Shown here in pieces: positions 45,871 to 62,697 of a stretch of DNA of 64,000 nucleotides. Source of the DNA: Bdellovibrionales bacterium (GTDB lineage Bacteria; Bdellovibrionota; Bdellovibrionia; Bdellovibrionales; UBA1609); the NCBI GenBank assembly GCA_965205945.1, contig CBDBIB010000002.1, positions 64,001 through 128,000 of the forward strand, read 5' to 3'. Both the position numbers and the translations under genes were made by a program. The notes below the pieces were generated by a model that ran no database searches, was not told the origin of the DNA, and saw only the letters and a list, made by a program, of their open reading frames with translations. Numbering within the stretch: the first letter of the stretch is position 1; each line of letters starts with the position of its first letter.

Positions 45871-48800
45871 TTAATAATCAGGGCTACAACGTGTAAAATT
45901 AGGTTTTTCAGCAAGAGTCCAAGAAGTTAAAGTTTGGTATGAAAAACTTCCACACTCGACAACGTTAGAAACATTCCATGAACTGATGTCTTGATCAAAA
46001 GAATCTGCATTAGAAAACATAGACCTCATATCAGTAACCTTAGAAGTGTCCCAGTTAGAGGTGTCAGGGTTAGCTAAATCTGCACTTAAAAACATAGACC
46101 TCATATCAGTAACCTTAGAAGTGTCCCAGTTAGAGGTGTCAGGGTTAGCTAAAGCTGCACTATTAAACATAGAGCCCATATTAGTAACCTTAGAAGTGTC
46201 CCAGTTAGAGGTGTCAGGGTTAGCTAAAGCTGCACTATTAAACATAGAGCCCATATTAGTAACCTTAGAAGTGTCCCAGTTAGAGGTGTCAGGGTTAGCT
46301 AAATCTGCACTAAAAAACATCCGGCTCATACTAGTAACCTTAGAAGTGTCCCAGTTAGAGGTGTCAGGGTTAGCTAAATCTGCACTAAAAAACATCCGGC
46401 TCATATTAGTAACATGTCTAGTTGAGCCACCATTAACAAGAGTTAAGTTATCTGCTTTATAAAACATATGACTAAAACTTTCCCACCCTGTGTCTCCTAA
46501 TTCTGTAACCTCAATTATTTGCTCGCTATCACGAAAGTTAAGATATGGGCAGCGCCCAGTGATTTTAACTATATAAGTCCCTGAAGATGAATAAGTATGA
46601 TTTTTATCTAAATCACTTGATGAAGTAACAACTCCCGAGGTTCCATCCCCCCAATGAACCATAAAGTTATATGTATAAGAAGAACTTAAACTAAGATTTA
46701 AATTTAAATCACTACCATAAATACTAAATTTAGCTGTAAAAGGGGTTCCTAAATTTTGTATTTCAGTGCTTAAACTAACTACATCAGACAGGTTTCCGGC
46801 TGCATCTTGTGCAACACCAGAGGCGATTGTAATTTGAATATTTCCGGTTTCATCACTGCAGTCTGAAATCCTAATACTTGGATTAATAGTTGTTCCATTT
46901 GTTACTAAAACTGTGCAACCTGTAGTAGCTCCAGTAAGGCTGACATTGCTCTTTTCTAGGTTTATACTACTAAAGTCTTGGCTTACAGTTATGGGAAAGT
47001 CTATAGAATTTGAACTGCTTATTATATGGCTTCCAATACTGACAATAGGGGGTTTAGTATCTTTTATTAGATTTAAAACACCTGAAGTTTTAGAATTTCC
47101 AGCAATGTTTGTGATACTAGCAGTTAGTGAAAGTGGACCATCACTTAGGCTTGAAAAATCAATATCACCACTAAAGCTTTTATTAGAACAAGTAATAAAG
47201 CTTGTACCATGTGAAAATGTGATAAGCTCACCATCTTCAGAACATGTTCCTAAAACCCTAAAACCCCCCTCATTAATAGAATTAATGTAAGATCCACTTA
47301 AAGAGTTTGTAATAGAAATTGTTGGATCATTGTTACTTAAAAAAGTTTTCCACACTACCCCATCGCAAAACTCCAGTTTTTTTCCTAAAGAATTATACCT
47401 TAAAGTACCCTCAGTTAAACTGTCACAAGGGGTTGTAACTGTTCCAACTTTTTTTAAAAATGTAACAGTAGATGTACTAATAGATCCTGGAGTAGAAATG
47501 CTTCCAGAGACAGAAACATCACCATTATTGTTAATAGTGATTCCTTCATCATCGCCGTCTCCACTTAAATAATTTTGGTTAAGATTTATATTTAATCGAG
47601 CCCTGCCATCTCCCATATTATCAGCACTGCTTGGTAAGTTTATAAGCCGACTTCCATCAACAGCAGGCAGTCTTAAAGAGCTATCAAGCTTAATAAGCTG
47701 ATTGCTCCCTGTGCCAACATCTAATCTAGCTGTGCTAATGGTTCCTGAAGTGATCTTTTCTCCATTTAAATCTGGTATATCAGATTTTAATAAACTTAAA
47801 CCCTCAACCACTCTTCCTTTAACATCAACTCTAACTTTTGGGTACGTCCCTTGGGTTACACCCGTTGGTATAAGACTAGGGTTCGGGTAGGTTCCTGTAA
47901 GATCCCCTTGAGCCTGGCTTCCTAAAAGACTTGTGTCTGTCACACATGACCATAAATAAATAGGACCTTCACTCATTTGAAGTTTTTCATTGCTTTCACA
48001 ATTAGGCACTCCACCAGCATCCATTGCGTTGCCTGCATTTTTTCCTAAAGAAGCTTTTAAATAACCGTTTAAAAAGTTTGAATGTGTTATTTTTTTAAGA
48101 CCACTTTGAGAAACATCATACATTAAAACACTGTCTAAAGAATCAGCCGTAGTTTTTTCTGTAGTTTTGTTAATGTCTACACTTAAACTTCTATTAGTTG
48201 ATAAATCTCCACCTCCACTTAATCCACTGTTTAAAGCCGTTCTAATAGTTCTAGTTATTGGAGCTTTTCTAGATTCAAGTTCATTAAGTGCACCTTCTAC
48301 ATCTGTAGCCTGAATGTTTCCAAATGGAGTGTAGGTCACCGTGTTTGCCGCCAGACTTGCTAAACTCCAACCTTCAGACACATCCTTACAATTTGCTCCT
48401 CTTTCATCACAAATTTGTGTTATTCTTGCTGTTCCAGCAACGTCTAATAAAGCCTCAGGACTAGCCTTACCAACTCCAACCCTTCCATTAGCATCAATAA
48501 TAATTCCCTCATTATCACCGTCTCCACTTAAATAATTTTGGTTAAGATTTATATTTAATCGAGCTATACCATCTCCCATATTATCAGCACTGCTTGGTAA
48601 GTTTATAAGCTGACTTCCATCAACAGCAGGCAGTCTTAAAGAGCTATCAAGCTTAACAAGCTGATTGCTCCCTGTGCCAACATCTAATCTAGCTGTGCTA
48701 ATGGTTCCTGAAGTGATCTTTTCTCCATTTAAATCTGGTATATCAGATTTTAATAAACTTAAACCCTCAACCACTCTTCCTTTAACATCAACTCTAACTT

Positions 48801-51800
48801 TTGGGTACGTCCCTGGGGTTACACCCGTTGGTATAAGACTAGGGTTCGGGTAGGTTCCTGTAAGATCCCCTTGAGCCTGGCTTCCTAAAAGACTTGTGTC
48901 TTGATCAACTTCACATGACCAGGAATAAATAGGGCCGTTACTCATTTGAAGTTTTTCATTAGTTTCACAACTAGGCACTCCACCAGCATCCATTGCGTTG
49001 CCTGCATTTTTTCCTAAAGAAGCTTTTAAATAACCGTTTAAAAAGTTTGAATGTGTTATTTTTTTAAGACCACTTTGAGAAACATCATACATTAAAACAC
49101 TGTCTAAAGAATCAGCCGTAGTTTTTTCTGTAGTTTTGTTAATGTCTACACTTAAACTTCTATTAGTTGATAAATCTCCACCTCCACTTAATCCACTGTT
49201 TAAAGCCGTTGTAATAGTTCTAGTTATTGGAGCTTTTCTAGATTCAAGTTCATTAAGTGCACCTTCTACATCTGTAGCCTGAATGTTTCCAAATGGAGTG
49301 TAGGTCACCGTGTTTGCCGCCAGACTTGCTAAACTCCAACCTTCAGACACATCCTTACAATTTGCTCCTCTTTCATCACAAATTTGTGTTATTCTTGCTG
49401 TTCCAGCAACGTCTAATAAAGCCTCAGGACTAGCCTTACCAACTCCAACCCTTCCATTAGCATCAATAATAATTCCCTCATTATCACCGTCTCCACTTAA
49501 ATAATTTTGGTTAAGATTTATATTTAATCGAGCTATACCATCTCCCATATTATCAGCACTGCTTGGTAAGTTTATAAGCTGACTTCCATCAACAGCAGGC
49601 AGTCTTAAAGAGCTATCAAGCTTAACAAGCTGATTGCTCCCTGTGCCAACATCTAATCTAGCTGTGCTAATGGTTCCTGAAGTGATCTTTTCTCCATTTA
49701 AATCTGGTATATCAGATTTTAATAAACTTAAACCCTCAACCACTCTTCCTTTAACATCAACTCTAACTTTTGGGTACGTCCCTGGGGTTACACCCGTTGG
49801 TATAAGACTAGGGTTCGGGTAGGTTCCTGTAAGATCCCCTTGAGCCTGGCTTCCTAAAAGACTTGTGTTTTGATCAACTTCACATGACCAGGAATAAATA
49901 GGGCCATTACTCATTTGAAGTTTTTCATTGCTTTCACAACTAGGCACTCCACCAGCATCCATTGCGTTGCCTCGACTTTTTCCTAAAGAGGCTTTTAAAT
50001 AACCGTTTAAAAAGTTTGAATGTGTTATTTTTTTAAGACCACTTTGAGAAACATCATACATTAAAACACTGTCTAAAGAATCAGCCGTAGTTTTTTCTGT
50101 AGTTTTGTTAATGTCTACACTTAAACTTCTATCAGTTGATAAATCTCCGCCTCCACTTAATCCACTGTTTAAAGCCGTTCTAATAGTTCTAGTTATTGGA
50201 GCTTTTCTAGATTCAAGTTCATTAAGTGCACCTTCTACATCTGTAGCCTGAATGTTTCCAAATGGAGTGTAGGTCACCGTGTTTGCCGCCAGACTTGCTA
50301 AACTCCAACCTTCAGACACATCCTTACAATTTGCTCCTCTTTCATCACAAATTTGTGTTATTCTTGCTGTTCCAGCAACGTCTAATAAAGCCTCAGGACT
50401 AGCCTTACCAACTCCAACCCTTCCACTAGCATCAATAATAATTCCCTCATTATCACCGTCTCCACTTAAATAATTTTGGTTAAGATTTATATTTAATCGA
50501 GCTACGCTATCTCCCATATTATCAGCACTACTTGGTAAGTTTATAAGCCGACTTCCATCAACAGCAGGCAGTCTTAAAGAGCTATCAAGCTTAATAAGCT
50601 GATTGCTCCCTGTGCCAACATCTAATCTAGCTGTGCTAATGGTTCCTGAAGTGATCTTTTCTCCATTTAAATCTGGTATATCAGATTTTAATAAACTTAA
50701 ACCCTCAACCACTCTTCCTTTAACATCAACTCTAACTTTTGGGTACGCCCCTTGGGTTACACCCGTTGGTATAAGACTAGGGTTTGGGTAGGTTCCTGTA
50801 AGATCCCCTTGAGCCTGGCTTCCTAAAAGACTTGTGTCTGTGTCTGTATCAATATCAGCCACGCAAGAATAGCTTATTATAGCACCAGGGTTTCGTTGAA
50901 TCTTTTCCCCACTAGTACACACAGGAAGAGTGTCCACTTGCATGAGCTGTCCTAAACCACTTCCTATATCTGCTTCTAAACCCCTTGGCGTAATTTTTAA
51001 ACCACTTCCTACTTTTACTTTTAATTTATTTATATTAAACTCTAAACCCCCAGAAGAATCTAAATCTAAATCTATGTTTCCACTGTTGTTGTATAAACCC
51101 CTACCAAGGTTGATGCTTATTGTTGGGTTGCTACCACCTGAAGAGGTTAAAGGAGCATTGACTAAAACACTTGATGCACTACTTAAGGTGCTTAAAACTT
51201 CTAAGCTAACACCATTCCAATACTTAAGCGCTCCAGAGTCACTATTGTACCAAGTAGCCCCAGCATTGCTCATGTTCATAGATCCTAAAAGACTAACTTC
51301 TTCTAAATTCGTATAAGAACCTAAGGTCATGGTACTTCCTGGGTTTTGCATAATATGACTTGTGTTTAGAATCTGATTATTATTAAAGTTAAGGTCACCT
51401 AATAAAACCCCTCCTGTAAGAGGAAGTTTTGTATTGTCAGTTCCTGTGGGAACCACTGAGCTTGGTAGAATTCCACTTGTGATTTTATTTGCATGAATAC
51501 CGCTTGCAAGATGACTGTTTAAAACACCCCCTGGTGCAATTAAAATTGTGCCACTGTTTGTAATGGTTCCACCACTTAAGCCGCTTCCTGCTGTAATACT
51601 GGTTACAGTTCCACTACCTTTACCAACAACAGTGGCTGCTGATCCATTGTAGTACATGATTTGATTATTTGTAGAGTTATACCAAATATCTCCTGCCTGA
51701 GAATTAGGTGGTGGATGAGAGCTTGAAAAACTAGGTAAAAAGCTAGCTCCACTGATGCTTAATGGGGAGTATTGATTAGAACTGCCATTAATTAAAGCCA

Positions 51801-52407
51801 TAAGCTCCCTTTGATTGGCATCATTATCAAACACGGTCTCTAAATTGCTTTGAGTAACACCACGACTTACTTGAATAAAATCATTAACAGCTTTTCCACC
51901 AAGTTTGCCGGCATACTGAGCATAGGGCACACTGTGAATTATATGGTCATTTGTTAAAGTAAGAGGGCCGCTGCCATGATCAAAAGTTACTCTAAGCCTT
52001 CTTGTATCGTTTAAGGTTGGAGTGTATGAAGACCCAAAGGCACAACTAAGACTTTTATTGTTTAAAAAAGAATTGTCTAAAGCTTTAGATAAATTTGTTA
52101 AGCCTCCATTTCCTGTGTTTATTCCAGACCCAACGTTTAAGTTAAAAACTCCCTTTGATCCTATCATATTAAGATTAAAACTTTCTTCGTAAAGAAGACA
52201 ATGATCCATGGAGGATAAAACTTGAACAAGAAAGCTGACATTATTTTCTTCTAAAGCGTCTCCATTGGGTTTTACAATTTGGCCTTGAAAAACAAAAGAA
52301 CTTGGGGTGGCTAGAGAATGGGGAGTTAATAGTAAAATTGTGAAGAAAGTTAAAGCTTTCACACTTATTTCTATGAAATTTTTTAATAAGTCATATACTC
52401 TATACAT
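45871..52407 (-). CDS. Giant secreted phage-tail-fibre-like (MAT-like) adhesin with Ig/PKD domains and DUF285 (BspA-like) tip
   Basis: Signal peptide; FQGQIVKP..G...CLLYEE N-domain; GTVTSITAGSGLSGG, GDLTGTYPNP, LPAVDGS, GRVGVG fibre motifs; WGDG; xMFxxA...SNWDTSKVT repeats. Confidence 0.8.
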   Translation of the reverse strand: MYRVYDLLKNFIEISVKALTFFTILLLTPHSLATPSSFVFQGQIVKPNGDALEENNVSFLVQVLSSMDHCLLYEESFNLNMIGSKGVFNLNVGSGINTGNGGLTNLSKALDNSFLNNKSLSCAFGSSYTPTLNDTRRLRVTFDHGSGPLTLTNDHIIHSVPYAQYAGKLGGKAVNDFIQVSRGVTQSNLETVFDNDANQRELMALINGSSNQYSPLSISGASFLPSFSSSHPPPNSQAGDIWYNSTNNQIMYYNGSAATVVGKGSGTVTSITAGSGLSGGTITNSGTILIAPGGVLNSHLASGIHANKITSGILPSSVVPTGTDNTKLPLTGGVLLGDLNFNNNQILNTSHIMQNPGSTMTLGSYTNLEEVSLLGSMNMSNAGATWYNSDSGALKYWNGVSLEVLSTLSSASSVLVNAPLTSSGGSNPTISINLGRGLYNNSGNIDLDLDSSGGLEFNINKLKVKVGSGLKITPRGLEADIGSGLGQLMQVDTLPVCTSGEKIQRNPGAIISYSCVADIDTDTDTSLLGSQAQGDLTGTYPNPSLIPTGVTQGAYPKVRVDVKGRVVEGLSLLKSDIPDLNGEKITSGTISTARLDVGTGSNQLIKLDSSLRLPAVDGSRLINLPSSADNMGDSVARLNINLNQNYLSGDGDNEGIIIDASGRVGVGKASPEALLDVAGTARITQICDERGANCKDVSEGWSLASLAANTVTYTPFGNIQATDVEGALNELESRKAPITRTIRTALNSGLSGGGDLSTDRSLSVDINKTTEKTTADSLDSVLMYDVSQSGLKKITHSNFLNGYLKASLGKSRGNAMDAGGVPSCESNEKLQMSNGPIYSWSCEVDQNTSLLGSQAQGDLTGTYPNPSLIPTGVTPGTYPKVRVDVKGRVVEGLSLLKSDIPDLNGEKITSGTISTARLDVGTGSNQLVKLDSSLRLPAVDGSQLINLPSSADNMGDGIARLNINLNQNYLSGDGDNEGIIIDANGRVGVGKASPEALLDVAGTARITQICDERGANCKDVSEGWSLASLAANTVTYTPFGNIQATDVEGALNELESRKAPITRTITTALNSGLSGGGDLSTNRSLSVDINKTTEKTTADSLDSVLMYDVSQSGLKKITHSNFLNGYLKASLGKNAGNAMDAGGVPSCETNEKLQMSNGPIYSWSCEVDQDTSLLGSQAQGDLTGTYPNPSLIPTGVTPGTYPKVRVDVKGRVVEGLSLLKSDIPDLNGEKITSGTISTARLDVGTGSNQLVKLDSSLRLPAVDGSQLINLPSSADNMGDGIARLNINLNQNYLSGDGDNEGIIIDANGRVGVGKASPEALLDVAGTARITQICDERGANCKDVSEGWSLASLAANTVTYTPFGNIQATDVEGALNELESRKAPITRTIRTALNSGLSGGGDLSTNRSLSVDINKTTEKTTADSLDSVLMYDVSQSGLKKITHSNFLNGYLKASLGKNAGNAMDAGGVPNCESNEKLQMSEGPIYLWSCVTDTSLLGSQAQGDLTGTYPNPSLIPTGVTQGTYPKVRVDVKGRVVEGLSLLKSDIPDLNGEKITSGTISTARLDVGTGSNQLIKLDSSLRLPAVDGSRLINLPSSADNMGDGRARLNINLNQNYLSGDGDDEGITINNNGDVSVSGSISTPGSISTSTVTFLKKVGTVTTPCDSLTEGTLRYNSLGKKLEFCDGVVWKTFLSNNDPTISITNSLSGSYINSINEGGFRVLGTCSEDGELITFSHGTSFITCSNKSFSGDIDFSSLSDGPLSLTASITNIAGNSKTSGVLNLIKDTKPPIVSIGSHIISSSNSIDFPITVSQDFSSINLEKSNVSLTGATTGCTVLVTNGTTINPSIRISDCSDETGNIQITIASGVAQDAAGNLSDVVSLSTEIQNLGTPFTAKFSIYGSDLNLNLSLSSSYTYNFMVHWGDGTSGVVTSSSDLDKNHTYSSSGTYIVKITGRCPYLNFRDSEQIIEVTELGDTGWESFSHMFYKADNLTLVNGGSTRHVTNMSRMFFSADLANPDTSNWDTSKVTSMSRMFFSADLANPDTSNWDTSKVTNMGSMFNSAALANPDTSNWDTSKVTNMGSMFNSAALANPDTSNWDTSKVTDMRSMFLSADLANPDTSNWDTSKVTDMRSMFSNADSFDQDISSWNVSNVVECGSFSYQTLTSWTLAEKPNFTRCSPDY
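46012..46411 (-). repeat. 75-bp (25-aa) DUF285 repeats, about 5 copies
   Basis: GTAACCTTAGAAGTGTCCCAGTTAGAGGTGTCAGGGTTAGCTAAA recurs every 75 bp. Confidence 0.95.
47540..50838 (-). repeat. Near-identical intragenic tandem repeat, periods 963/969/969 bp (3 full + 1 partial unit)
   Basis: Equivalent positions at 47702, 48665, 49634 and 50603. Confidence 0.95.
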
Positions 52408-52497
52408 ATTGTATATTTCGGATGAAAAGCTTAATAATTAGAGGAAATTAAATAGTTTTTTAGCTCTAATTCTACATTTTTATTTTCATTTAAAATC

Positions 52498-53039
52498 TGT
52501 GCTTTTACAAAATATGCCGATAAGGAGGATTATGTTACTACGTCTATTTTAAAATTATATTTAAGTTTAAAAGTATTTAATTATAAAAGTTTAGACTTTA
52601 TTTTTTTAAAATTATTATTTTCAATAAAATTTTTATCATTAAAAATAAGGACTGCTTTAGAATTTACTTTAAAAATATTTAATATTTAGCGCTCTTTTTT
52701 TAAAGCTTAGATTTAAATATCTTTATTTATCATAGCTGTTATTTTAACCAACATCTAAGTTTAAAAGTTATTAAGATACAGCATATGTATTATATAAAAT
52801 TAAATAAATATTTAAAGCGATATTCTTTAAGGTTTTTTTAATATTTATTTGTATAGAGATATTATTTAAACAAGAAAATCTTGTTAATTAAACGTAACTA
52901 TTTTGCAACATTTTTATGTTACAAAGAAATTTACACTTAAGCACCATAGTTAAAATCAGCAGGTCAAATCAAAAATAATGTGGTTTTAAGCAGAAATAGT
53001 AACATAATCCTCCTTATCGGCATGTTTTATAAAAGCACA
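52498..53039. repeat. 43-bp inverted repeat pair (52498-52540 / 52997-53039) containing dif-like XerC/D sites
   Basis: TGTGCTTTTA(C/T)AAAA-(T/C)ATGCCGATAA-GGAGGA-TTATGTTACTA on opposite strands, 2 mismatches. Confidence 0.9.
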
Positions 53040-53366
53040 CCATCCATATTAATAACTTTAAAAGTATTCCAACCAGAAATGTTAGGGGGGTTGCTAAAGC
53101 TGCATTACTCAATTTAATATTAGAGCTTTTGCGGGCAAATGACACAGAGCGCATTAGGAGTGTGAAAATAGTAGGGCTTTTGCTTATTTACCTATTCTAG
53201 GCAGATTCAAACTAGATTTAAATCAAGGGTATATTGTTGCATCACATTCTAAACTTAGAAGAGAGGAGTTATTTAAGTTATTCCACTAATATAAGCGCCT
53301 TTATCTAAAGGATAAAGTATTTTATGAGATAAAAACTCTAACATACTGGTATCTTTTGTGGTTCTT

Positions 53367-53423
53367 AAATCTTTTGATTATATGCATGGTAGAAAAGCTA
53401 TTTGTTTAGTGGTTAAATTTTAA
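53367..53423 (+). pseudogene. C-terminal relic of S-(hydroxymethyl)glutathione dehydrogenase (FrmA-like)
   Basis: KSFDYMHGRKAICLVVKF* resembles the FrmA end AFDLMHEGKSIR.V..F and stops 1 nt before the hydrolase ATG. Confidence 0.6.
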
Positions 53424-53424
53424 T

Positions 53425-54264
53425 ATGAAGTTATTAAAGAAGCATAAGTGTTTTAATGGTGTAACAGAGTTTTTTGAACACGATTCTATTTTTACAAAAA
53501 TCAAAATGAAATTTGCAGTGATTAGGTCTGAAAATTTAAAAGATATTAAAGGAGGTCTTATTTGGCTATCAGGGCTAACTTGTACTGAGGAGAACTTTGT
53601 AATTAAAGCCGGAGCTCAAAGAGTAGCTACTCAACTGGGTTTAGTTATAATTTGTCCAGATACTTCGCCAAGAGGTTTAAGCCTTTTAGGAGAGCATGAA
53701 TCTTGTTATTTTGGCTCTGGGGCAGGCTGTTATGTGGATTCTTTAACTCAAGATTATAAACACCATTACAATATGTATTCATATGTGAATGATGAAATCT
53801 ATGGGATTGTAAACAAAGAATATAAGCTTAATGGGAATATAAGTATCTTTGGCCATTCAATGGGTGGGCATGGTGCTTTAGTTATTGGTTTAAGAAATAC
53901 TAATAAATATAAATCCATCTCAGCTTTTGCTCCTATTGTAAATTTAACAAAAGTAAATTGGGGTAAAAAAGCTTTTAAAAAATATTTAGGATCTGATGAA
54001 AATTTATGGAATAAATATGATGCTTGTGAATTAATTAAGAGTGGTAAATTTCATAAAAATAAAATTTTAATTGATCAGGGTACGGATGATGAGTCTTTAA
54101 ATAAGAGCTTAATGATTCCTAATTTTGAAAAAGCATGTGAATCATCACCTCAAGAACTTAAAGTAAGGTATCATAAGGGGTTTGACCACTCATATTACTT
54201 TGTTTCTACGTTTATAAAAGACCATTTAAGGTTTCACCAAAGAAGTTTATTAAAACAAGTTTAA
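53425..54264 (+). CDS. fghA: S-formylglutathione hydrolase
   Basis: WLSGLTC, PDTSPRG, GHSMGG nucleophile, DHSYYF. Confidence 0.95.
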   Translation: MKLLKKHKCFNGVTEFFEHDSIFTKIKMKFAVIRSENLKDIKGGLIWLSGLTCTEENFVIKAGAQRVATQLGLVIICPDTSPRGLSLLGEHESCYFGSGAGCYVDSLTQDYKHHYNMYSYVNDEIYGIVNKEYKLNGNISIFGHSMGGHGALVIGLRNTNKYKSISAFAPIVNLTKVNWGKKAFKKYLGSDENLWNKYDACELIKSGKFHKNKILIDQGTDDESLNKSLMIPNFEKACESSPQELKVRYHKGFDHSYYFVSTFIKDHLRFHQRSLLKQV

Positions 54265-61354: not shown

Positions 61355-62697
61355 AGAAAAGTCAGTCTGGCGTAGTCGATTCGGGTTTTATATTGCTTCT
61401 ATTGGAACAGCTTTTGGTTTAGGAAATCTTTGGAGATTCCCTTATGTTTCTATTGAGTACGGTGGTGGAGCCTTTGTTTTTATATATATATTAATGGCCT
61501 TTTTCATTGGTATTCCTTTGCTTATTTCAGAAATAAGTTTAGGAAAATACTTACATAAAAAGGGGGTAAGCCTTTCAACATTAATCTTAAAAAAGAATTC
61601 AAAAATGAATATTATTTTACAGCCACTTTTATGGTTGCCGTACTTAATTTCATTTATAGTCTTGTCTTATTACTGTATTCTAAGTGGATGGACTGTATAC
61701 TTATTAGTGAAAGCTATAATGTATTTATCAAAAGGGATGTCGCATTTTGATGAATCGATATTTTTAACTCTAAAAGAAAAACCTATATTGCAGGTATTTT
61801 TATTAAGTATTTACTTAATAACGGTATTTCTTATATCAATTAAAGGTTTAAAAGCCGGAGTTGAAAAATGGCTATCGTTTGTAATGCCTTTTTTTGTATG
61901 TTTTTTAATTTATTTTTTATTTAAAATTATAAATCAAGCTGATCTTTTTGAGGCAGTTCGTTATATGATTTATCCGAATTTTCATTTACTAACATTTAAA
62001 TCATTTTCTTATATTTTAGGGCATGTGCTATTTACTATGAGTCTTGGTTTTGGTTCTGTTTTTACATTAGGTAAGTATTTGCCTAAATATGCATTATCAG
62101 GTATGGCGAGTGTGAGAGTTGTTGCTATAGATACATTAGTTTCTATTTGTATAGGTATTGTGATTTTTTCTATTATTGCTTTTTCAGGTTATAAAGGGGC
62201 TTTAAGTGAGACATTATTTAGGGCGATTCCAAATTTTATTCAAATTAAAGGCTTGTCTATATTTTTGTTGTTAGGGTTTTATATTTGTATATTGATTGCT
62301 TTTATTAATGCTTCAATTGGTTTGATTGAAAACAATAATGTATAAATTAAACGATTCCACTGGTTGGAATAGAAAAAAATCTTCATTCTTTCTTTATACA
62401 GTTACAATAATAGTTTCAACTTTAATAATATACTTAAATAAAAATGGAGTAGGAGTTTTTCTAGGTAGAAGTTTTTTAGAGCAGATAGATGATGTAGTTA
62501 TTAATTATATTCTTCCACTTTCAGCGATAGTGATTTCAGTGCTTACACTAAAATATGTTGAGAAAAGTTTTTTAAAAAATGAGTTTGATGTGGATGAAAA
62601 AATTGAAAATTTAAAAATTTATTATTTTTGGAGATTTTTTTTATATTTTATAATGCCAAGTATTTATATATTTTTTTTAGTACTCCGTGTGCTTTAA
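61347..62697 (+). CDS. Sodium-dependent transporter (SNF/NSS family), frameshifted near 62330
   Basis: GLGNLWRFPY signature; two ORFs join if one A is removed from GAAAAC. Confidence 0.85.

Follow-up and report, generated by a model that had tools for sequence, protein, structure and literature searches.

The DNA analysed here, hereafter the window, is a stretch of 64,000 nucleotides (nt) from the genome of a Bdellovibrionales bacterium (G000:C2:64001-128000; the genome, G000, measures 1.87 Mb at 32.5% guanine-cytosine (GC) content in 5 contigs, C1 to C5). On its minus strand lies a giant adhesin gene, and just upstream of this gene we found a 456-bp, very AT-rich segment that is bracketed by two inverted sites resembling dif, the site of chromosomal XerCD recombination. 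We refer to the bracketed segment together with its two sites as the switch, and compare it with its counterparts elsewhere in G000 and in a congener, G003. The features of the locus, in window positions, are as follows.

52498..52540, plus strand: left inverted repeat, 43 nt; its outer 16 nt (52498-52513) keep to the flank on the adhesin side
52513-52523, 52524-52529 and 52530-52540: dif-like core of the left repeat, made up of XerC-like arm, spacer GGAGGA and XerD-like arm TTATGTTACTA, respectively
52541..52996, no strand: invertible interior, 456 bp, 17-21% GC, no open reading frame (ORF) above 20 amino acids (aa)
52883..52996, plus strand: most strongly conserved block in the interior and candidate for a promoter or regulatory end, here far from the adhesin
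52914..52922, plus strand: lone half-site TTATGTTAC resembling a XerD arm, inside the conserved block, followed by AA as in the native dif; found in G003 too
52997..53039, minus strand: right inverted repeat, 43 nt, with XerD-like arm 52997-53007, spacer 53008-53013, XerC-like arm 53014-53024 and outer 15 nt 53025-53039
52357..52497, minus strand: flank A, the fixed leader between switch and adhesin start, kept in 9/9 paralogs and homologous to the proximal leader of G003
53040..53113, minus strand: flank B, 74 bp here, a decayed remnant that forms the other edge of a repeat unit of ~7.1 kb
45871..52407, minus strand: giant adhesin ORF, 2178 aa from the first ATG, one of 9 paralogs; probable start GTG 52356

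The two 43-nt arms of the inverted repeat differ at two positions only (arm positions 11 and 16), and a repeat search extended them weakly to 56 nt at 88% identity, with a runner-up inverted repeat in 51500-54000 of 27 nt at 78%. A 27-nt core, ATGCCGATAA-GGAGGA-TTATGTTACTA, is identical in both arms, and none of 100 dinucleotide-preserving shuffles of the window yielded a match to it, even at up to 3 mismatches. With one further base it forms a 28-bp site, (T/C)ATGCCGATAA-GGAGGA-TTATGTTACTA, that reads as two 11-nt arms around a 6-nt spacer, the inner arm ends being partly palindromic (..ATAA / TTAT..), a layout that matches the proteobacterial dif as described in the accessible part of PMC2731167. 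The XerD-like arms point inward, and the spacer reads GGAGGA on both sides. The anatomy thus stands as the initial annotation had described it: a 43-nt inverted repeat with 2 mismatches around 456 bp of AT-rich, ORF-poor DNA upstream of the adhesin, with the 11-6-11 division, the matching spacers and the inward D arms all seen in both arms. The GC content of the interior ranges from 16.5 to 21.5% in 200-nt windows, the longest frame lying wholly inside it is a single one of 20 aa, and an Rfam search of the interior returned no match at E<=1. From the left arm it is 90 bp to the first adhesin ATG and 141 bp to the GTG at 52356, which is the likelier start because of its homology with the start of the congener's gene (ATGAAAGCTTTAAC).

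The switch is not a single-copy feature. Across G000 we counted 17 sites, grouped into 8 inverted pairs with their sites 483-541 bp apart plus 1 lone site, with 0 arm mismatches at 17/17. All 9 of these loci abut the N-terminus of an adhesin paralog, and a search with the N-terminal 383 aa recovered 9 paralogs at 99-100% identity that correspond exactly to the 9 switch loci, such that every paralog (9/9) carries one. Self-BLAST outlined a repeat unit of ~7.1 kb at 96.6-98.8% identity, consisting of the adhesin gene, the flank A leader, the switch and 74-160 bp of flank B. Within it, the interior is 97.4-99.8% identical to the window copy at 7 other loci and 86% at the eighth (C3:99315). Flank B, which is 130-160 bp long at the other loci, is probably a relic of a former tandem arrangement, since it resembles the DUF285-repeat 3' part of the adhesin gene. 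Past flank B the neighbours vary by locus, with an esterase gene here and, at other loci, an IS5-like transposase gene (IS, insertion sequence), hypothetical genes and more; only the adhesin accompanies the switch throughout. A scan of this genome and its relatives for the site and for linkage to fibre genes, as proposed in the initial annotation, accordingly found further copies only beside paralogs of the same fibre gene, in G000 and one congener.

The adhesin has a signal-peptide-like N-terminus and C-terminal DUF285 repeats of 25 aa, and its gene contains tandem repeats of ~963 bp (47533-50841) and of 75 bp, the latter encoding DUF285 units (46002-46413). Paralogs differ in repeat number, with open frames from 1266 to 2838 aa, and the assembly breaks off inside paralogs where C1 ends and where C3 starts. 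Some copies are rearranged. The lone site (C1:289256-289432) belongs to a rearranged paralog with only 134 bp of interior left, and the 3' part of its adhesin gene (C1:268690-270995) lies ~14 kb away in the opposite orientation. At C1:651555-651729 and C3:590423-590554, an inverted partial copy of flank A (132-175 bp) replaces flank B with no gene behind it, which could be the trace of recombination between switch sites of different loci.

Comparison of the copies revealed that the interior occurs in both orientations. At six G000 loci the switch lies between a flank A and a flank B, and these loci divide evenly, 3 in each interior orientation.

Window orientation: C1:68060, C1:521565 and C2:116498 (the window's own)
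Reversed orientation: C2:61989, C2:176016 and C3:99315

The interior at C2:61989 is 99.8% identical to that of the window yet flipped. The two orientations that the initial annotation had asked for are thus seen between identical flanks at different paralogs, with 3 vs 3 loci in G000 and 1 vs 1 in G003. Contigs assembled from the sequencing runs (4 data sets) have termini within the repeat core, as in 52514-53010 and 52514-53023, and gave no joints. Since the genomes assembled into only 5 (G000) and ~10 (G003) contigs despite ~98% identical 7-kb repeats, the orientation given at each locus probably reflects reads that span the switch. Comparison of paralogs shows, in both species, that the segment has inverted between flanks that are identical.

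The copies also locate the point of exchange. Variants in the outer 16 nt of the arms track the flank independently of how the interior is oriented: a T at arm position 11 was found in 4/6 B-side and 0/11 A-side sites, TGTAC at the tip in 2/6 and 0/11, and GTATGA in 0/6 and 4/11, respectively. Two distinct interior ends, which start right after the XerD-like arm, swap sides. As the outer variants follow the flank while the interior ends swap, the crossover falls within a 32-bp stretch from arm position 11 to the arm end, inside which lies the whole 28-bp site. The variant at arm position 16 (T/C/G/A), immediately beyond the XerC-like arm, was tried as a further marker of the exchange point and discarded, as it tracks neither flank nor orientation consistently. 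In 7/8 pairs of G000 the spacer is the same in both partners, one of these pairs having GGGGGA on both sides. That site-specific inversion has occurred at the dif-like core is, in our judgement, far more probable than the full mechanism proposed below.

A congener carries the same arrangement with a diverged sequence. In G003, GTGCTGATAA-TATGGA-TTATGTTACTA occurs as two pairs, both with a spacing of 529 bp and both upstream of an adhesin paralog that is 76% identical to the one in the window. There the inverted repeat is the 27-mer alone, with unrelated sequences outside it, and the two loci have identical flanks and interiors that are 99.2% identical but opposite. Between G003 and G000 the interiors are 67-68% identical, while the arms differ at 2/21 and the spacer at 4/6 positions; the G003 spacers are nonetheless matched within the pair (2/2), and the arms are intact at 17/17 sites in G000 and 4/4 in G003. 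Conserved arms combined with a free but pair-matched spacer are, going by established Xer biochemistry, the expected look of a tyrosine-recombinase core site. The 12 other adhesin paralogs of G003 are switch-less, with neither a dif-like site nor a homolog of the interior within 1.7 kb upstream. A proximal leader of ~110 bp is common to all paralogs, and the switch-less ones have a conserved distal stretch of ~100 bp at the place where the switch sits in the two switch-bearing G003 paralogs and in all G000 paralogs. Beyond these genomes, a metagenome scan with a conserved 20-mer of the interior gave 10 loci, none with a related switch or an inverted dif-like pair, and a search for related loci with XerD as the query gave no relative.

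We next place the switch sites relative to the native dif. This site, AATGCTGATAA-GGTATA-TTATGTTACAA, lies at G000:C1:58572-58598, where it is unique at up to 2 arm mismatches, and its 27-mer is identical and single-copy in G003. It sits on a plateau (about 49-65 kb) of the cumulative GC skew of C1, which peaks at 61,935, whereas the skew minimum, at C3:44,125, coincides with dnaA (C3:43875-44363). Because the native dif is at the skew maximum of C1 and the skew rises throughout C2, the window is not the terminus, in line with the earlier suspicion that the pair is not the terminus dif. An arm scan with any spacer found, beyond the 17 switch sites, one site at 2 mismatches, namely the native dif, and one at 4. 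The comparison of arms with the native site likewise bore out the proposed kinship, with 19/21 arm positions identical and 3/6 spacer positions different. Among 81 family genomes, 64 contain a (T/C)GATAA-N6-TTATGTTAC site at up to 1 mismatch, usually in one copy, and by manual count from the table its spacer is GTTATA in 32 of those 64. The dif of Bdellovibrio bacteriovorus HD100 is given in the accessible text of PMC2731167 as TCTTCTGATAA-GTTATA-TTATGTAACGG, and in the part compared it differs from the family form by one base. Judged by their sequence, the switch sites are spacer-variant copies of the lineage's own dif. From established knowledge of tyrosine recombinases, the 3/6 differences between GGAGGA and the native GGTATA should block recombination between switch and dif. 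The native dif is ~0.9 kb from the 3' end of an adhesin paralog (C1:59458-68020), a possible source of the duplicated sites; the dif of G003 is not near a paralog.

As to the enzyme, the window has no match to PF00589 (tyrosine recombinases) or PF00239 (serine recombinases), the nearest being at C2:243052, 126 kb off, which agrees with the earlier remark that no recombinase gene is adjacent. G000 as a whole has n=5 PF00589 genes, i.e., a XerD-like one (best NCBIfam match TIGR02225, 263 bits), a XerC-like one (TIGR02224, 160 bits), a 430-aa integrase and two truncated genes (198 and 265 aa). Inspection found the RHR..Y-type catalytic motifs in both Xer proteins, and an FtsK gene is present. There is one serine recombinase, of 238 aa, beside an IS-like ORF, and profile searches of G000 gave no match to PF04754 (YhgA/Rpn-like) or PF01548 (IS110/Piv-like). 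In G003, which is 98% complete, only 2 PF00589 matches were found, the orthologs of the G000 Xer pair, and its single serine recombinase is of the large type (576 aa), unlike that of G000. Among the families searched, the XerC and XerD orthologs are the only recombinases common to G000 and G003. As they are the only ones shared by the two switch-bearing species, we infer that XerC and XerD do the flipping. The xerC ortholog of G003 lies ~4.3 kb from one of its switches, just past the adhesin gene (G003:C5:534145-537588); in G000 the ortholog is ~36 kb from the nearest paralog. Close to two of the other G000 recombinase genes we noted near-identical copies (3 residues differ) of a 166-aa IS3 OrfA-like ORF, around 818-820 kb and 211-214 kb of C3. 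One copy has a truncated integrase as its neighbour and the other has the small serine recombinase, a picture that resembles a mobile element present in repeated copies.

We suggest, with slightly better than even confidence, that these segments are Xer-driven invertons, catalysed by XerCD, that phase-vary the adhesin family. According to this model, the host XerC and XerD would bind the arms, exchange strands across the identical spacers and flip the segment, while the non-dif spacer would keep the switches from recombining with dif. The flip would reorient a promoter or another cis-regulatory signal in the conserved end block, and each paralog could then be ON or OFF independently, resulting in combinatorial phase variation of adhesins that differ in repeat number. 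The fuller proposal, in which XerCD, as a global invertase, would run phase variation at many loci, with promoter-bearing segments at nine adhesin genes that are insulated from dif by their spacers and without need of a dedicated invertase, we rate at somewhat less than an even chance.

For the regulatory part of the model, the conserved block at 52883-52996 is the natural candidate. It is 68-85% identical to G003 in 40-column windows, vs 42-72% in the aligned rest of the interior, and two windows at the left end of the interior score 15-17%, where they span an insertion in G003. Since the switch replaces the conserved distal upstream stretch of the switch-less paralogs, it sits where a promoter would be expected. 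We favour a promoter in the conserved block that would read out through the nearest repeat. Which orientation is ON is a weak guess, leaning modestly toward the one in which the conserved block adjoins the adhesin; because the block is distal to the adhesin in the window, the window copy would then be OFF, and C2:61989, C2:176016 and C3:99315 would be ON. The known switch of cwpV acts via a terminator that forms in one orientation, and is flipped by RecV. Such a terminator mechanism in place of a promoter flip may act here as well. The sequence scan that was used for promoters found no terminator-like site.

Several observations weigh against the model. Binding and cutting of the switch sites by XerCD are putative, and both Xer proteins score under the NCBIfam equivalog cut-offs. 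Canonical XerCD-dif recombination depends on FtsK and takes place only in the terminus region, whereas the switch sites are scattered round the chromosome, where XerCD would have to be activated without FtsK at the septum. One pair, at C1:521565, has unequal spacers (GGAGGA vs GGGGGA). No assembled contig bridges the unique DNA beyond 53113 into the interior, and the two orientations are thus seen across paralogs only. Concerning the promoter, a consensus scan gave 12 promoter-like sites vs 8.1 +/- 2.7 in shuffles, with candidate -35/-10 pairs on both strands, AT-rich DNA making such a scan uninformative; homology between the conserved end of the interior and the distal upstream region of the switch-less paralogs was considered and dropped, local alignment giving z from -1.1 to 1.5 vs shuffles; and a fixed promoter may lie in flank A, given its homology to the proximal leader that the switch-less paralogs have. 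Finally, the comparative base is narrow, as the switch is carried by two species only and was not found in 3 other congeners.

Part of these data could be read without Xer recombination, with the inversions due to RecA-type homologous recombination between the short repeats, or the loci being evolutionary fossils; the sites would then stem from a duplicated dif and no longer serve any site-specific recombinase, and orientation would be without regulatory effect. The ~98% identical paralogs evidently do exchange sequence by homologous recombination, the duplicated site could have come from the native dif, since one paralog ends just 0.9 kb away from it, the contigs gave no single-locus flipping, and neither the promoter scan nor the distal-region alignment placed a promoter. 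Yet the perfect match is only 27 nt in both species, and 27 nt is near the lower limit for RecA-dependent exchange. The arms have moreover stayed intact at 21/21 sites in the two species though the interiors diverged to 67-68%, and the spacers changed at 4/6 positions between species yet match within pairs. As the interiors in opposite orientation are still 99.2-99.8% identical, recent or repeated flipping seems indicated, and we consider the homologous or fossil origin unlikely. Somewhat less likely again is a dedicated invertase encoded elsewhere that acts at sites merely resembling dif. While G000 does have three further PF00589 genes and a small serine recombinase, such an enzyme would have had to escape the PF00589 and PF00239 searches of G003, where two switches are in opposite orientation and the XerC and XerD orthologs are the only tyrosine recombinases; the serine recombinases of the two species differ in kind. 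The arms also match the native dif at 19/21 positions, with the only other near site in the genome 4 mismatches away. A precedent for this alternative comes from Ureaplasma, where, in the accessible part of PMC3599477, a recombinase annotated as XerC inverts DNA and another protein binds the putative dif.

That the segment is a mobile cassette whose place before the adhesins is incidental, either a miniature inverted-repeat transposable element (MITE) or an Acinetobacter-style dif module, is improbable, and the MITE reading we reject. It would account for the TGT...ACA terminal inverted repeats, the many copies and the inverted C/D-D/C anatomy, which dif modules share in the available portions of PMC6449649 and PMC13141974. 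However, the MITE proposed as an alternative in the initial annotation should leave scattered copies with target-site duplications, and what we found are many copies of which none is scattered outside the adhesin unit: 9/9 lie inside the adhesin repeat unit, having spread as part of the ~7.1-kb duplication, and 8/8 pairs are free of a target-site duplication, with flank A ending in ...AAAATC and flank B starting with CCATCC. In G003 the repeat is the 27-nt core without the TGTGC termini, the 12 switch-less paralogs offer no dif-like docking site, and the interior contains no gene. The other alternative raised at the outset, in which the repeat would be a gene start (Shine-Dalgarno sequence plus ATG) that was duplicated in inverted form, draws on the fact that spacer plus arm in G000 reads AAGGAGGATTATG (52524-52554 and 52983-53013), with an ATG in the XerD-like arm. 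The frames from that ATG run inward for just 6 and 13 codons, and the Shine-Dalgarno-like spacer, its core feature, is TATGGA in G003 and hence not conserved; we reject this origin as highly improbable. The reading given in the initial annotation is supported, and XerCD-catalysed inversion is our working model.

Several known systems resemble the switches in part. On Acinetobacter plasmids, opposite pXerC/D sites with identical spacers mediate reversible inversions, according to the accessible text of PMC9947245, and there as here opposed 28-bp sites of 11-6-11 layout bound a segment (the pdif arrangement) with no recombinase encoded in the module. Unlike Acinetobacter dif modules, the switches are chromosomal, form isolated pairs rather than alternating arrays, enclose a gene-free 456 bp and always lie 5' of one gene family; the constant context at 9/9 copies in G000 gave no sign of module mobility. 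In being short non-coding segments between inverted repeats upstream of surface-structure genes, they are similar to fimS of Escherichia coli (FimB/FimE) and to the Mpi regulon of Bacteroides fragilis. Systems of the fimS/Mpi type use one invertase at many loci that share a repeat consensus and show mixed orientations, the repeats not being copies of dif and the invertase being dedicated. In contrast to these, the switch repeats nearly equal the native dif, and the two species have no dedicated invertase in common. At the mba locus of Ureaplasma parvum, an XerC of the Xer family inverts DNA at short inverted repeats and thereby phase-varies surface antigens, while CodV binds the putative dif (from the part of PMC3599477 that is available); where that enzyme is a specialised paralog, the candidates for the switches are the XerC/XerD pair themselves, and the sites are dif-like. 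As in integrative mobile elements exploiting Xer (IMEX) such as CTXphi and TLCphi, the switches would employ the host's XerCD beyond dimer resolution, through sites that resemble dif but have altered spacers, as far as the accessible part of PMC9226527 describes these elements. Unlike IMEX, which are integrated at dif near the terminus as direct repeats, the switches are inverted, far from dif and without element genes. With cwpV of Clostridioides difficile they share an invertible segment between upstream DNA and a large surface-protein gene (accessible part of PMC2784873). Within the literature searched, which left subscription journals outside and includes a survey of invertons and a review on phase variation (the available parts of PMC11602134 and PMC11868660), we found no description of a chromosomal, dif-like, multi-locus switch before surface-protein genes. 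The anatomy is that of the Acinetobacter pXerC/D pairs, and the biology that of multi-locus invertible promoters.

Other dif-like pairs occur in the family. In a genome of another genus (G060:C1:292000-297000), an inverted pair of TGATAA-GTGTCT-TTATGTTAC sites, at 1695(-) and 3186(+) and hence 1.5 kb apart, brackets a PD-(D/E)XK/YhgA-like 'transposase' gene, with two type IV pilin-like genes, divergently oriented, flanking the pair; the listed pilin ORFs open with the ATG within the XerD-like arm. A second genome of that genus, G088, has 12 CGATAA-GCTT(A/C)A-TTATGTTAC sites, with four inverted pairs 2.6-10 kb apart on C1 (around 222-228 kb, 295-301 kb, 1029-1042 kb and 1501-1510 kb), whose spacers are matched within the pair, GCTTAA with GCTTAA and GCTTCA with GCTTCA. 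These pairs enclose YhgA/Rpn-like genes (one also an IS110-family gene, and one a phage portal gene) and adjoin genes for pilin-like proteins or YdcK beta-solenoid secreted proteins. The position of the G060 and G088 pairs near pilin-like and beta-solenoid genes suggests that Xer-site inversion may be a recurrent means of cell-surface variation in the family. Two identical canonical dif sites were further observed in inverted orientation, 9.7 kb apart, in G052 (C1:1165500-1178000). In G034 (C52, 2842/2883), a pair of canonical sites 40 bp apart point toward each other, with arrays of genes for small secreted proteins on both sides. In the congener G002, one contig starts with a dif-like site (G002:C94:1-27, spacer TTAAAC), and a tyrosine recombinase gene follows 5.8 kb further on; this is possibly an integrated element of the Xer-exploiting or the integrase kind.

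Dedicated invertases are the usual agents that flip invertons, and XerCD is usually regarded as a dimer-resolution machine, at times hijacked by plasmids and phages. If the organism has indeed copied its own dif, changed the spacer and set inverted pairs before nine adhesin genes, an essential housekeeping system would have gained a regulatory use that is new, and this would imply FtsK-independent or otherwise activated XerCD recombination at inverted chromosomal sites. It would then also offer a natural case for studying how XerCD is activated off the terminus and how spacer identity sorts Xer sites into mutually non-reacting classes. Such switches would escape genome scans for phase variation that rely on invertase genes beside inverted repeats. 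The ~7-kb adhesin units make up roughly 3% of the 1.87-Mb genome, which suggests that surface variation matters greatly to the life of this organism.

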